From IMG/VR virus record IMGVR_UViG_2711768073_000021: DNA of 6,531 nt; one strand, 5' to 3'. A program made the position numbers and the translations under genes. Below, in pieces: positions 1 to 6,531 of the stretch. The notes under the pieces are model-generated. The model was not told where the DNA came from. It did not search any database and saw nothing but the letters and a program-made list of their open reading frames with translations. Numbering within the stretch: the stretch's first letter is position 1; every line of letters begins with the position of its first letter. The stretch comes from a virus. Taxonomy: Duplodnaviria; Heunggongvirae; Uroviricota; Caudoviricetes.

Positions 1-111
1 CAGCTGCTTACCGCGCTTCGTGCGCTGCTGTTAAGCCGCAAGAATCCGTTTGGCGATATCAAATCTGATGGCACGGTGAAAACGGCTCTCGAAAACCTTG
101 GTTTGGGAGAA
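1..111. repeat. Inverted repeat, left arm; encodes the 3' end of a tail-fibre constant region and ends in crossover site A
   Basis: Bases 1..111 are the exact reverse complement of 2031..2141 (111/111 by direct comparison). The arm reaches the first base of the window, so its true length is unknown. Confidence 0.9.
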
Positions 112-552
112 GCGGCAAAACGAAATGTGGGCAACGGGGAAAACCAAATCCCTGATATGTCTTTCTGGACGGTTACTGGTGGCAATGGAAATTTTGTGAT
201 TCGTCAACCTGACGGGCTAATCATTCAGATGGTTACTGTAAGTATAAGCGGTCCAGTGGCGATGAATGGAATGACTGATAATGCTTATGCCATTACAGGT
301 TCTAATAAGTCTTATATTGCCACAGCCACATTGCCCTTTGTATTTCCTAATAAGGTGCTGGGCGTTATCCCTCTGGTATCAACAACAGCTTATGGTGGTG
401 TATCCAGTAATATTACAGGTTCATACGCGACGGCGGTTTGTTCTTTTGCCGCTGTCAGGGGGAATAATACGATTGTGTTCAAAGTCGACAAACCACTGAA
501 TGCAGCCTTTCCTTCAGATACCAGCGTCTCAGCGTTAATCATTGGACGGTAA
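1..552 (+). CDS. Tail fibre protein, 5'-partial at window edge: constant-region fragment fused in frame to variable C-terminal domain Sv
   Basis: Frame 1 is open from base 1 to TAA at 550..552; the ORF track starts it at GTG 76. Translation of 1..111 ([37 protein letters not shown]) is identical to the constant part of the minus-strand tail fibre 1572..2333. After the crossover site it diverges into a Gly/Ser/Thr-rich domain typical of fibre tips. Confidence 0.8.
86..111. other. Serine-invertase crossover site A (hix/gix/pix-like, 12-2-12)
   Basis: CTCTCGAAAACC-TT-GGTTTGGGAGAA is an imperfect palindrome of two 12-bp half-sites around a 2-bp core. It resembles the hix/gix consensus as recalled (TTnTCnnAAACC half-sites), lies at the inner boundary of the inverted repeat, and is in frame within tail-fibre coding sequence. 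Confidence 0.75.
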
Positions 553-554
553 GA

Positions 555-998
555 ATGAACTCAGTATTCTTTTCACCCGCAAGTAAAAGTTTTTATCTGC
601 AAGAATTGTTTCCAGAATATGAGGATGCGGGAACGCTTCCTGATGATGTTATTGAAATTACCAGAGAAACATATGAGCAATTTCTTGGGCTGCATCCAGA
701 AGGGAAAGAAATTGGCGCTGACAGTTCAGGACGGCCAATATGGATTAATTCCCCGCCGCCTTCAAAAGAGGATGAGATGCTGGCGGCTGAAATGAAAAAG
801 ATATCTTTGGTTTCAGAAGTCAATACCTACATCAATACCCATCAGTGGCCTGGCAAAGCTGCTATTGGTCGTCTGAAAGGTTACGAGCTGGAACAATATA
901 ATTTATGGCTGGATTATCTGGACGCACTGGAACTGGTTGATACCTCCAGTGCTCCAGATATTGAATGGCCTACGCCTCCGGTAGTTCAGGCCAGATGA
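555..998 (+). CDS. Tail fibre assembly chaperone (Tfa / Mu U / P2 G-like), partner of Sv
   Basis: ATG lies 2 nt after the Sv stop. C-terminus [24 protein letters not shown] matches the conserved Tfa C-terminal motif (DTSxAPDIEWP). It overlaps the opposing tfa 3' end convergently (970..998). Confidence 0.85.
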   Translation: MNSVFFSPASKSFYLQELFPEYEDAGTLPDDVIEITRETYEQFLGLHPEGKEIGADSSGRPIWINSPPPSKEDEMLAAEMKKISLVSEVNTYINTHQWPGKAAIGRLKGYELEQYNLWLDYLDALELVDTSSAPDIEWPTPPVVQAR

Positions 999-1575
999 CA
1001 TCCGGCGCGGTGCTGGTATCTGTTGCAGTCACCGCGTCAATGTAATCCAGCACAGCGTTAAGCCGGGTTGTTTCTGCCTGCGTCAGCTTCCGCCCGGCCT
1101 GCAATTTCAGCTGAATCAGACTAATGGAAGCCATAGCAGCATCAATCAGTGACTGGCGCCGTACTTCTGCCGCGTCTACTGCGGCGTTATGCTGTGCCTC
1201 AGTATCGGTCACCCATTTCTCACCATCCCATTTATCGTATGACGTTAACGGGGCGATAGTGGTTGTATTTTCAGGGTAATCACCCGGAACTGTGATTTCT
1301 TTTGATTCTCCTGTTTCGGTGCTATAGACGATTTCACCGCGATGGTCTGGCACATATTCCCATGAGTTAAAATCTGCAGAACGGCAAATTGCATAACCAG
1401 CTTTATATGAGCCAGGAGCATCTAAACAGGAACATGCCGGGATACCAACACCCACAGCAAGATATTCAGTTGATGTGGAAATATATTCCCGTGTTTCACC
1501 ATCATAATTATAAACGGTAATGTCTCCGGCCTTTGTGGCGATGAGTTCATTATTTAATACAGCTTTACTTATCAT
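970..1575 (-). CDS. Tail fibre assembly chaperone (Tfa-like), partner of Sv'
   Basis: ATGA start/stop overlap with the upstream tail-fibre gene. Contains ...KWVTDTEAQ... and C-terminal [24 protein letters not shown], characteristic of the lambda Tfa / Mu U family. Confidence 0.85.
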
Positions 1576-2333
1576 GCAGCCCTCACAATATAATTAAAGG
1601 CGATGTTACGGGAGCGGGTTTCAGATGCTGTGCGAACTGAGCGAGATGCGTCGAATGTCCAGTTATAAGCGCCATAACCCTCAATAATTTCGGCTTCCTT
1701 TAGACCTGTAGATAATACTTGCCCATGTTGACTAAATGGCCCTGAACTAAGTACGTCTCTAAAAAGCTGGGTACGCCCAAAAGAACCAACAATATTCTGA
1801 ATTGCATCATTCTGTGCAGATAATAAGTTACGACCAGAGTCAATCCCGCGCCCATCATCCCAGCCACGAATAAATTCACCGCGTAAATCTGGTAATTTTA
1901 ATGTTGGGTAAGCCTTTGCCAGATTTGGGTACTTTTCAGAAGAAAATACTGCTCCGTTACATTTTAGCCACCCCGTTGGCGGAGTGGCGGAAGGCCACGG
2001 AACAGGCACACCAACGGGTAATGCCGAACCTTCTCCCAAACCAAGGTTTTCGAGAGCCGTTTTCACCGTGCCATCAGATTTGATATCGCCAAACGGATTC
2101 TTGCGGCTTAACAGCAGCGCACGAAGCGCGGTAAGCAGCTGGTCATGCCGCCCCTTCTCCAGGCTGGCACCGGATGCCTCCACCACGCTGCAGAGTTCTT
2201 CCTGCAACATGTCAAAGTAGTCATCATCCAGATCGGTGGCAGGTGTGCCGGTCTGGGGGTTACCACGGGTAAAACCGTTCTTACCCGCGCCGAACTTATC
2301 CTTCTGCGCGGTTTTCGTGTCTATACGATGCAT
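1572..2333 (-). CDS. Tail fibre protein (constant N-terminal part Sc + variable C-terminal part Sv' with phage tail-collar-like motif)
   Basis: 253 aa. N-terminus [21 protein letters not shown]... is recalled as typical of e14/lambdoid-prophage side tail fibre proteins. The reading frame passes through crossover site B (ALENLGLGE). The C-terminal part has [11 protein letters not shown]...[13 protein letters not shown], resembling the T4 gp12-type tail collar motif. Tightly coupled to the upstream gene (3-nt gap) and downstream tfa (ATGA overlap). Confidence 0.9.
2031..2056. other. Serine-invertase crossover site B
   Basis: TTCTCCCAAACC-AA-GGTTTTCGAGAG, the reverse complement of site A, in inverted orientation relative to A. 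Confidence 0.75.
2031..2141. repeat. Inverted repeat, right arm
   Basis: Exact reverse complement of 1..111. Whether identity continues beyond 2141 cannot be tested, because the partner would lie left of base 1. Confidence 0.9.
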
Positions 2334-2336
2334 GGA

Positions 2337-4146
<1,810 letters not shown>

Positions 4147-4158
4147 CCACTACAAGAC

Positions 4159-4184
4159 TTCTCCCAAACCAACGTTTATGAAAA
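4159..4184. other. Third serine-invertase crossover site (site C), invertase-proximal, orphaned next to the IS
   Basis: TTCTCCCAAACC-AA-CGTTTATGAAAA. The first 14 bp (inner half plus core) are identical to site B; the other half-site is distinct. Starts 4 bp after the IS right terminus and ends 55 bp upstream of the invertase ATG. Same orientation as B, inverted relative to A. Confidence 0.65.
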
Positions 4185-4238
4185 TGCAGAAATAACGAGC
4201 AAATGGCATCATTCCTGCTTTTGTCAGGGAGATCTACC

Positions 4239-4793
4239 ATGCTTATTGGCTATGTACGTGTGTCAACAAATGACCAGAACACAGATCTACAACGTAATGC
4301 GCTGAACTGTGCAGGATGCGAGCTGATTTTTGAAGACAAGATAAGCGGTACAAAGTCCGAAAGGCCTGGACTGAAAAAACTGCTCAGGACATTATCGGCA
4401 GGTGACACTCTGGTTGTCTGGAAGCTGGATCGGCTGGGGCGTAGTATGCGGCATCTGGTCATTCTGGTTGAGGAGTTGCGCGAACGAGGCATCAACTTTC
4501 GTAGTCTGACGGATTCAATTGATACTAGTACCCCAATGGGGCGCTTTTTCTTTCATGTGATGGGTGCCCTGGCTGAAATGGAGCGTGAACTGATTGTTGA
4601 ACGAACAAAAGCTGGACTGGAAGCTGCTCGCGCACAGGGACGAATTGGTGGACGTAAGCCAAAACTAACGGATGAGCAGTGGGCGCAGGCAGGGAGACTA
4701 ATCGCTGCAGGAGAAACGCGTCAGCGCGTAGCATTAATTTATGATGTAGGAGTGTCAACACTATACCGAAAATTTCCTGTAGGCAGGGATTAG
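4239..4793 (+). CDS. Site-specific DNA invertase, serine recombinase of the Gin/Pin/Hin/Cin family
   Basis: MLIGYVRVSTNDQNTDLQRNAL...GDTLVVWKLDRLGRSMRHL...GINFRSLTDSIDTSTPMGRFFFHVMGALAEMERELIVERT...GRIGGRKPKLT... carries the catalytic Ser in YVRVS and a C-terminal HTH, near-identical in pattern to Gin/Pin as recalled. RBS AGGGAGA is 6 nt upstream of ATG 4239. The ORF-track start at 4203 is a probable over-extension. Confidence 0.92.
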   Translation: MLIGYVRVSTNDQNTDLQRNALNCAGCELIFEDKISGTKSERPGLKKLLRTLSAGDTLVVWKLDRLGRSMRHLVILVEELRERGINFRSLTDSIDTSTPMGRFFFHVMGALAEMERELIVERTKAGLEAARAQGRIGGRKPKLTDEQWAQAGRLIAAGETRQRVALIYDVGVSTLYRKFPVGRD

Positions 4794-5022
4794 ACATGAT
4801 GCAGGCCACCGGTAAAGATTGATGCTGGCAGACAGCACAACTTTACAGCCCAAACTGTCGAGCTCTTGGGAACTCAGACACTAGCCATATATCGGCTCTC
4901 TTAGAGCCGGTGAACCCTCTAAATCAATTCGCCCAGAATGATATTTTTGTACTGGGCAGACCATCACAATTCGGTAATAGACAGCATCAAAGGCAGCTAA
5001 ATAAACCTTAGGCTTATCCACA

Positions 5023-6531
5023 TTACATATCTGCATCAGGAGCCAGTGGGTGTCGAAGATAATGTTCCTGAAGAACATCTGCAATTGATTTCAGATTGTC
5101 TTCCTTAACAATGGAAAGAATGTCACGTCCATTTTTCCAGTCTAATGATATTTTTGTATTTCTTTGCTTCTGATGAAGCAGCAGCTCAAGTGCTTCAGGT
5201 TCAAAATCTGATGAGGTCCAGAATGAAAAAGTCATTTTTCGGTCACGGTACACATGAATCTGACTGTAGAATTTTCTGATGCGTTGAACTCGTTCGAGCC
5301 ACTTTTCGATCATTTCGACTGAAATTAGTCGCTTAACTTCATAGCCTTTACATTCGTAGCACTTAATTTCTGCTTCGCCTCTAAAACCAATCACATCTAT
5401 TTCAGCCTTACCTGCCTCGGTACTGATTTGTTTATTCAAGTCCACAGTGCTGACATTTTGGGTTTTCAGTACGATGTGACCAACTAACATTTCAAACATT
5501 ACGCCTCTTATATTGATTGCGGCGCCTTCAATCCTCGTAAGTCCTTTAAATAGTTCGTTGATTTTTTCTGGGTTTGCTGCCGCAATAGCACTGGCACGAT
5601 TAAGAGTATTTAATAAACTGGACAGTAGTGCTGAAATGTCTTGACCAAGTAGGTTAGATACTGTTGTAGCCATTACACCAGCTTGTTTCGCAAGGCGAAA
5701 GGCTTCTGGATCAAAACGTTCTGCAATCAGCATAGCTAGAAACGGGCGAGTATTTCGCATATTTCTGCATCGCTGTACTTTCGTGAGATAGGTTTGGATG
5801 CTTTTGCTATCTAAATCATTGTATATGACATCTGCAACAATGAAGCCATTACTCATTTCACCTTTTTGTACTGTTGCTAAAGGCATAATATATGACGGAG
5901 CACATATGTCCCAATGGTGATGGCTAAATGAAGGCATATTCTGAGAGTTACGGACTTGGACCTTATTAAAGCTGCCAAGGCTATTGTGTTTAATCCAGTC
6001 AGCTACACCTTTAATGAGAATATCTTCAACCAGCAATTGGTTTCGGACATGTTGGGTATCCGTTACCCCGTTAATATTATTTATGTAAGTAACAAGACAA
6101 TCCCCCAAAACGACATCAACTTCCCTACGCAGAACTGAACCTTTAAGCAATTGCGCTTCAAGACGGCTTGACGCAATGTGTCCCTTCAGTTTGTCCGGAC
6201 TCCCTGAAACCTTGCTAAAAAGATATGTCGGGATCGCCCCTTGATAAGGGTGGAAAGCGAAAAAGGTGTGAGCATAGACTGTTCTTGCATTTACATGACT
6301 TTCAAGCAATGCAATCCAATATCGACGAGAGTTATAGTCCTTTGTCAGATAGAGAAATGCTTCATTTTTGGGCAAAGAAAAATGAGTAAAACGTTGAACA
6401 TCACCTCCAACGCGGGAGATTCGCTGTCTGGCGTTAACTTCTGTTAGGCCATTGGCTATCAGTTTTTCTCTTAAGGCAGATGAGGACATCGGCCCGTAGA
6501 TATGTAGAAGTTGTTCTATGGATGGTTTCAT
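5023..6531 (-). CDS. Hypothetical 502-aa protein with putative C-terminal PD-(D/E)xK (Mrr-catalytic-like) nuclease motif; candidate restriction/defence cargo; N-terminus may extend beyond window
   Basis: Long uninterrupted minus-strand ORF in visibly AT-rich DNA, convergent with the invertase. Residues ~340..410 read FEMLVGHIVL...AEIDVIGFRGEAEIKCYECKGYEVKRLISVEMIEKWL, matching the hhhD...(D/E)xK layout of Mrr_cat-type nucleases (D379, E393-x-K395; GAA TGT AAA is the reverse complement of 5347..5355). No Walker A motif seen. The ATG sits exactly at the window end, so the true start is uncertain. Confidence 0.7.
   Translation of the reverse strand: MKPSIEQLLHIYGPMSSSALREKLIANGLTEVNARQRISRVGGDVQRFTHFSLPKNEAFLYLTKDYNSRRYWIALLESHVNARTVYAHTFFAFHPYQGAIPTYLFSKVSGSPDKLKGHIASSRLEAQLLKGSVLRREVDVVLGDCLVTYINNINGVTDTQHVRNQLLVEDILIKGVADWIKHNSLGSFNKVQVRNSQNMPSFSHHHWDICAPSYIMPLATVQKGEMSNGFIVADVIYNDLDSKSIQTYLTKVQRCRNMRNTRPFLAMLIAERFDPEAFRLAKQAGVMATTVSNLLGQDISALLSSLLNTLNRASAIAAANPEKINELFKGLTRIEGAAINIRGVMFEMLVGHIVLKTQNVSTVDLNKQISTEAGKAEIDVIGFRGEAEIKCYECKGYEVKRLISVEMIEKWLERVQRIRKFYSQIHVYRDRKMTFSFWTSSDFEPEALELLLHQKQRNTKISLDWKNGRDILSIVKEDNLKSIADVLQEHYLRHPLAPDADM

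Follow-up and report, generated by a model that had tools for sequence, protein, structure and literature searches.

What occupies the 229-bp spacer between a phage DNA invertase gene and the accessory gene that converges on it, and where was this accessory (cargo) gene joined to the phage backbone? These questions arise in IMG/VR record IMGVR_UViG_2711768073_000021, a 6531-nucleotide stretch of DNA from a tailed phage (Caudoviricetes), the whole of which is called the window here. A preliminary description, made by reading the letters, had taken the spacer for an intergenic junction between an invertase module and foreign cargo, and the hairpin within it for a weak bidirectional terminator or a recombination scar. 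Here, we report a comparison of this locus with related prophages and mobile elements. The spacer and its hairpin, taken as a whole, are very probably the outcome of ordinary prophage decay and derive largely from the relic of a dinI-family gene. The kind of history is already well known from mosaic prophage ends, gene relics and accessory genes beside attR, as in the pin–mcrA region of e14; what the spacer adds is one unannotated dinI pseudogene in these genomes.

Prophage context of the window

Annotated relatives identify the window as the right arm of a prophage in the e14 family, equipped with a Mu-like baseplate/tail-fibre module and a Pin invertase. ORFs and Pfam matches delimit an invertible tail-fibre block, consisting of stf'/tfa' (76–998, plus strand) and tfa/stf (970–2333, minus strand), a Mu gp48/YmfQ-like baseplate gene (2337 to ~2900, minus strand) and an IS3-family element (ISSen4-like, ~2898–4154). 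A gene for a pin-type serine DNA invertase of 184 residues follows (4239–4793, plus strand; Pfam Resolvase, 8.6e-52; HTH_7, 2.9e-14), which is labelled pinE or recombinase in the annotations of relatives. The spacer (4794–5022) separates it from the cargo ORF of 502 codons (5023–6531, minus strand), which has no Pfam match. In relatives, the annotated gene order is baseplate, ymfQ, stf, tfa, inverted tfa'/stf', pin, accessory genes and attR, and RefSeq annotates nothing between pin and the cargo gene.

The attachment site of e14-family prophages varies by strain (ssrA, icd or a tRNA-Pro gene), and carriers of the module found here are mostly integrated at ssrA. A pin-like match occurs in 2715 of 5426 complete E. 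coli genomes and pin together with the cargo gene in eight; the carriers form one recent lineage, with 99.2–99.9% identity across the entire module. The pin allele of the window is the one common to dinI-bearing relatives, and homology of the window to the e14-type pin, which accompanies mcrA, stops at the region of the pin stop codon.

A decayed dinI-family gene in the spacer

A sensitive blastn search of 4794–6531 against the 5426 complete E. coli genomes gave, beyond the eight full-length matches, matches to 4794–4902 at 77–87% identity and to 4903–4972 at 86–89%. Both sets fall under genes annotated as 'DinI family protein', many of which directly adjoin a recombinase gene, and the best identities to annotated DinI genes are 87.2% (4794–4902) and 88.7% (4903–4972). 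DinI is an SOS protein that binds the RecA filament. In isolate 44 (L003), strain 1500 (L005) and Ecol_545 (L004), a dinI gene of 80–88 codons comes after pin and converges on it, and the intact DinI proteins of relatives match the Pfam DinI family at 3.8e-23 (the protein of isolate 44) and 1.6e-20, as well as PHROG 189.

Blastn, tblastn and a multiple alignment (A1) agree on two parts of the relic, both on the minus strand. The 3' part (4843–4902) encodes DinI residues ~70–88 and the stop codon (complement of 4843–4845); tblastn aligns residues 70–88 at 4902–4846 with 13 of 19 identical, KRADIWLVSEFPRARQFGL, followed by the stop. The 5' part (4904–4972) holds residues ~11–33 in two frames with an in-frame stop: residues 19–33 lie in another frame at 4948–4904 and contain the stop (KNIILGELI*RVHRL, 11 of 15 identical), and residues 11–19 form a third frame segment at 4971–4945 (NCDGLPSTK). 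The pieces are read in frames −1, −3 and −1, nothing remains of residues ~34–69 (~36 codons), and the start codon has not been conserved. In alignment A1, the window tracks the dinI relatives from the pin stop codon through a 49-bp gap, the dinI stop codon and the C-terminal codons as far as ...ATATCGGC; after ~110 bp that are missing, the match picks up again at ...CCGGTGAACCC... and, on the way to the dinI start, shows two deletions, of 1 bp and 4 bp, and an insertion of 11 bp. Weak similarity to the 5' end of dinI, up to the former start codon, extends over 4973–5010 in this one MAFFT alignment alone.

Judged from these alignments, most of the spacer is an unannotated, decayed dinI-family gene on the minus strand that runs from 4843 to at least 4972 and probably to ~5010. 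The 229 bp are free of ORFs, but ~130–170 bp of them are dinI pseudogene rather than simple intergenic sequence. Homology to DinI (PF06183) is evident at both the DNA and the protein level and an intact ORF of ~80–88 codons with a start codon is absent, so the relic is a pseudogene rather than a member gene of the family. A 67-codon ORF at 4881–5084 (minus strand) was considered as a gene and rejected: it starts with TTG, overlaps the 3' end of the cargo gene, has no Pfam match and is an out-of-frame dinI remnant. A literature search on dinI, invertases and prophages returned nothing on a pin–dinI–cargo arrangement.

The two parts of the relic differ in their closest relatives: the 3' part is nearest to the 88-residue dinI allele of isolate 44 and the 5' part to the 80-residue allele of Ecol_545. 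Because the halves are nearest to different alleles and blastn found no intact allele combining two such halves in complete E. coli genomes, the join at 4903/4904 may have arisen by illegitimate joining of two dinI copies instead of by deletion within one.

The hairpin at 4893–4909

The hairpin CGGCTCT-CTT-AGAGCCG was confirmed at 4893–4909, where it straddles the deletion join at 4903/4904. Its stem has seven perfect pairs, five of them G–C, around a 3-nt loop, and folds at −13.5 kcal/mol when flanking A–U and G–U pairs are included; it is a GC-rich stem-loop of the sort that Rho-independent terminators possess. As first described, it has no U-run 3' of the stem on either strand (the plus strand continues with GTGAACCC and the minus strand with ATATATGG), and a promoter/terminator scan of 4794–5022 found zero sites. 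An Rfam scan of the entire window at E ≤ 1 gave no match in the spacer; its single match, to isrC, falls within the IS. When perfect 7-bp stems with loops of 3–8 nt were counted, first-order Markov simulations gave P ≈ 0.065 for at least one in the 229-bp spacer, and the whole window holds four versus 2.9 ± 2.2 expected. The hairpin does not go beyond chance.

The origin of the two arms can be read from the dinI relatives. The left arm, CGGCTCT, comes from codons around ...EEADMW..., and the right arm, AGAGCCG, from codons around ...KRVHR...; in intact dinI genes, ~110 bp separates the sequences of the two arms (alignment A1). All eight complete genomes with the module read ATCGGC-CTCTTAGAGCCGG and are without T4897. 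Their left arm, CGGCCTCTT, is exactly what intact dinI genes have at this place, which makes the T-less form the older one. This form gives a bulged 6-bp stem at −8.5 kcal/mol (z = −1.6). The perfect stem with the extra T4897 is seen only in the window and in two IMG/VR contigs (L015 and L016), and so is not conserved among relatives. The perfect 7-bp stem is therefore owed to a very recent change of one base, at the deletion join of a gene that was already dead. Thus, the suggestion of a recombination scar holds to the extent that the hairpin straddles an internal deletion join in the dinI relic, but this is not the join to the cargo. More generally, a deletion join and the insertion of one base can produce a tidy hairpin between two convergent genes, which cautions against calling terminators from hairpins on sequence alone.

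The ancestral gap between pin and dinI

The first 49 bp of the spacer, from the pin stop to the dinI stop (4794–4842), correspond to the ancestral gap between the two genes (alignment A5). In six relatives with intact dinI, this gap holds a GC-rich palindrome, TGCAGGCyGCC-N16-GGCrGCCTGCA, with a conserved stem of 11–14 bp; copies occur at 6151–6188 of L003, in L023, L026 and others. In the relatives, the palindrome has a folding energy of −23 to −32 kcal/mol, and AAUUUUAC comes after it on the pin strand. Its 11-bp stem is kept in the six relatives except at one position, which is mismatched in four. The window has a decayed copy (4800–4837), in which four of the 11 pairs are broken and which adopts a different fold at −18.7 kcal/mol. 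Across eight aligned sequences (the six relatives, the window and FT130, L001), 83% of cells in the stem are paired, compared with 20–56% when the partner columns are slid. A covariation test found one compensatory pair and no excess over shuffles, so that the support for the palindrome comes from conservation and energy only.

These features suggest that the ancestral palindrome was likely the convergent terminator of pin and dinI. Conserved in relatives and degraded here, it is a better candidate for a bidirectional terminator than the hairpin, and its decay along with that of dinI fits relaxed constraint on the entire block.

The junction between backbone and cargo

Homology bounds the junction from both sides. 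Secure homology to the dinI-bearing relatives, present on both sides of the hairpin, reaches at least 4972, and DNA homology to the cargo modules of Salmonella (L010) and Morganella (L011 and L012) begins at 12878 of L001, equivalent to window position 5035, which lies within the cargo ORF, 10 bp from its 3' end. The junction therefore lies in 4973–5034, an interval that overlaps the cargo stop codon (5023–5025). At the other end, cargo-module homology extends no more than 162 bp upstream of the start of the gene. In L002, an IS is located at window position 5024–5028. A blastn search with word size 7, comparing the sequence upstream of intact dinI with window 4960–5120, returned chance-level 7–10-mers only and did not narrow the interval. 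The junction had been placed at ~4880 or at the hairpin; since dinI homology spans the hairpin to at least 4972, its true position is ~100–150 bp further to the right.

Base composition also changes in this area. The GC content is 49.2% in pin, 45.9% in the spacer and 40.9% in the cargo gene, and within the spacer it is 50.6% in the first 87 bp (4794–4880) and 43.0% in the last 142 bp (4881–5022). In a two-segment likelihood scan over 4155–6531 with a permutation test, the maximum-likelihood change point is 4920, with 48.8% GC to its left and 40.8% to its right (P = 0.002); the 2-LLR support interval is 4712–5088, so composition alone locates no breakpoint better than about ±190 bp. The GC3 value is 0.42 for pin and 0.35 for the cargo gene, and the phage's own variable tail genes go down to 0.37–0.39; the tail module of the relative L001 has 56.2% GC. 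The GC drop that had been noticed by eye from ~4880 is therefore real and significant, a discontinuity against the phage backbone as expected of an accessory-gene junction, but its best point is 4920 with broad support. Accordingly, the breakpoint is placed by homology at the cargo stop codon and not at the compositional change point.

Alignment to relatives also revealed different content at this place. Between pin and attR, they carry mcrA, dinI only, dinI with three hypothetical genes, dinI ... HNH, or other hypothetical genes, and another carries a DUF3037/HipA-kinase pair with dinI and umuDC; such differing gene content at the same place is what an accessory-gene junction would show. Thus, the pin–attR region of e14-family prophages is a place where accessory genes of restriction type or related to the SOS response are exchanged. 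In strain GE3 (L007, 5811–7366), a DUF3037 protein and a HipA-family kinase lie as a pair between pin and an intact dinI, so both sides of dinI are open to cargo in these prophages.

The cargo gene

The view of the cargo gene as foreign and variable was borne out: it is present in eight of 5426 E. coli genomes, relatives hold other genes in its place, and it is not universally linked to this invertase. Homologues at 82–86% identity without an invertase nearby occur in a Salmonella ICE-like region, at the end of a Morganella siphovirus/lambdoid-type prophage and on a Pantoea plasmid, that is, in unrelated mobile elements and without the neighbouring phage genes. The GC content of the cargo gene (40.9%) is close to that of these homologues (39–45%) and of mcrA (38%), as opposed to 56% in the tail module of L001. 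Ninety-two members of the family can be detected, spread over many phyla and including members from Proteobacteria, Myxococcus and Verrucomicrobia. No family model was found for it in Pfam, NCBIfam or PHROG, and scattered weak matches to Mrr_cat and NERD occur among the homologues.

An AF2 model of the cargo protein (pLDDT 90.1, pTM 0.85) confidently predicts winged-helix domains followed by a C-terminal PD-(D/E)xK nuclease, placing the protein in this superfamily of the restriction-endonuclease-like fold as judged from the model. In an alignment of 46 homologues, with identity down to 24%, two residues, D379 and E393, never vary, E347 and E377 show at least 90% conservation and the consensus reads AEIDV...YECKG; the family thus has the acidic residues and lysine of a D ... 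E-x-K catalytic motif. PADLOC gave a marginal match to LmuA (E = 0.0073). In three carriers, the cargo gene is the sole gene between the dinI relic and ssrA and has no adjoining methyltransferase. These observations fit a putative solitary McrA/Mrr-like or effector-type nuclease. Literature searches with the RefSeq accessions of the cargo protein returned no publication.

A wider reading is that the pin–attR interval is a defence-gene hot spot and that the cargo, having displaced dinI here, founds an undescribed solitary winged-helix/PD-(D/E)xK family; it would restrict DNA in a type IV-like (modification-dependent) manner or serve as an effector of abortive infection, and so take over the function of McrA in e14. 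We regard this as possible yet doubtful, and even if it were true, the spacer itself would still be a relic. The cargo gene, a candidate new solitary nuclease of mobile elements, is the part of the locus worth following up.

Comparison with known systems

A close counterpart is the right end of e14 in E. coli K-12, with pin, mcrA and attR in icd. There too, a Pin invertase adjoins an invertible tail-fibre segment of the same tail-module family (ymfQ, stf, tfa), and an AT-rich, solitary restriction-type nuclease gene lies just inside attR (38% GC in mcrA, 41% in the cargo gene). Nevertheless, the two differ in several respects. The cargo is a predicted PD-(D/E)xK nuclease, whereas McrA belongs to the HNH type; the cargo gene is on the opposite strand, convergent to pin with a dinI relic in between; and carriers of the window module are mostly at ssrA rather than icd. 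Another parallel is the gin–mom region of phage Mu, where the invertase lies at the end of the tail-fibre genes and a variable, compositionally distinct DNA-modification accessory gene lies just inside the phage end. The window prophage likewise has an invertase and then a variable modification/restriction-type accessory gene near the phage end, but it does not transpose, its integration relies on attachment sites such as ssrA, icd and tRNA-Pro, and its genes are unrelated to com and mom.

Within the spacer, two comparisons apply. Prophage DinI genes (PF06183, PHROG 189) are homologous to 4843–4972 in DNA (87–89%) and also in protein, and they take the same position convergent to pin; the relic, however, is no longer a gene, having lost ~36 codons, its start codon and its promoter region and being split over three frame segments with an in-frame stop. 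With Rho-independent bidirectional terminators, the hairpin shares a short GC-rich stem-loop between two 3' ends, but it is without a flanking U- or A-run and its perfect stem is not conserved.

Origin of the spacer and alternative explanations

The decay of dinI would account for the locus as follows. The pin-to-attR stretch of e14-family prophages is a variable accessory region, and one variant of the backbone has a small dinI-family gene convergent to pin, with the GC-rich palindrome in the 49-bp gap. In the lineage of the window, an AT-rich single-gene module for the predicted nuclease lies directly upstream of dinI, at the place of its would-be promoter, and dinI has decayed: ~36 internal codons are gone, frameshifts and an in-frame stop are present, and no start codon is left. 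The 229-bp spacer is then the sum of the old pin–dinI gap (4794–4842) and the wreck of dinI (4843 to ~5010), and the hairpin an accident of the deletion join that a later single-T insertion in the sub-lineage of the window turned from a bulged 6-bp into a perfect 7-bp stem. This account draws on the homology, deletion, frame disruption, T polymorphism, GC shift, variability of the locus and mobility of the cargo that are observed here. Loss of the dinI promoter on insertion of the cargo presumably relaxed selection on dinI, and the relic would have no function of its own, being transcribed only as the 3' tail of cargo or pin mRNA. The deletion join was found in IMG/VR only alongside the cargo, and neither of its two alleles had a match among GTDB representatives (one genome per species); since the scar is seen only together with the cargo, dinI may have decayed before or after the cargo was gained.

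Other explanations concern mainly the hairpin. If it were a weak, factor-independent terminator that acts in both directions on the convergent transcripts of pin and the cargo gene, its GC-rich stem and its energy of −13.5 kcal/mol would be in keeping, and with the ancestral pin–dinI palindrome degraded, a replacement stop signal might help. The missing U-run on either strand and the negative terminator scan of the spacer argue against this, as does the fact that the eight near-identical complete genomes have only the bulged stem of −8.5 kcal/mol; moreover, the stem sits inside a pseudogene, was made by a deletion join and has an occurrence compatible with chance. The terminator role first proposed is thus improbable. 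That the hairpin, or the position ~4880, marks the point where foreign cargo joined the invertase module is scarcely credible: dinI sequence lies on both flanks of the hairpin, 4904–4972 is 88.7% identical to pin-adjoining dinI in genomes free of the cargo, and homology of the cargo to other elements starts only at 5035, even though the change point at 4920 is close by and BLAST homology switches between two types of dinI allele at 4902/4903.

A third possibility is that the relic has been kept as a functional 3' untranslated region or small RNA of the cargo or pin transcript, the stem-perfecting T being adaptive. On both strands, the spacer gives a somewhat more stable fold than shuffled sequence (z = −2.75 and −2.97), which leaves a small chance for a structural role of its RNA, and the relic is 99–100% conserved among the carriers examined. 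Because these carriers are a single recent lineage, however, their conservation carries no weight; in addition, Rfam finds nothing in the spacer and the stem is polymorphic. A functional RNA is therefore very unlikely, and dinI decay remains the preferred explanation of both spacer and hairpin.

Observations on the left part of the window and on strain FT130

The left part of the window differs in its arrangement from canonical relatives. Three pix-type crossover half-sites (TTCTCCCAAACCAA) lie at 98–111 (minus strand), 2031–2044 (plus strand) and 4159–4172 (plus strand), with zero expected by chance. A perfect inverted repeat of 112 bp (1–112 and 2030–2141) places the tail-fibre constant part on both sides of the cassette block, whereas in canonical relatives it flanks the block on one side only. 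The IMG/VR contigs L015 and L016 contain the same pix and cassette pieces in other orders. Isomers made by Pin or by the IS could account for the arrangement, as could the paths that an assembly takes across the invertible region. No single rearrangement that would explain the left part, with stf on both sides and the IS joined to pix–pin, fits L009, L015 and L016, and assembly isomers are possible.

The IS3-family element is flanked on one side by ymfQ without its first seven codons and on the other by the pin-associated pix site; a target-site duplication is absent (GGA|IS|AGA). Strain 602687 (L009) has the identical ymfQ|IS junction (99.98% over window 93–4154) and ypjA on the far side; the window must therefore have acquired its join of the IS to pix–pin by a secondary rearrangement, and it belongs to a defective prophage. 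The Rfam match to isrC, an 'Hfq-binding sRNA', at 2965–3087 (plus strand; 150 bits, E = 1.3e-37) falls entirely within the 5' part of orfA, the transposase gene of the IS, and was rejected as a separate sRNA gene, being simply part of the IS.

In strain FT130 (L001, 14608–17246), the cargo gene is followed by a 3'-end fragment of ssrA, an attR remnant, and beyond it by a 94-codon ORF and a gene for a 564-residue AAA_15/AAA_21 (AbiEii/OLD-like) ATPase, which adjoins a truncated LysR-family gene beside the pao operon. This arrangement indicates a second island or a relocated prophage end. The same region of FT130 contains a 68-bp stretch that resembles the pin–dinI gap of Ecol_545.
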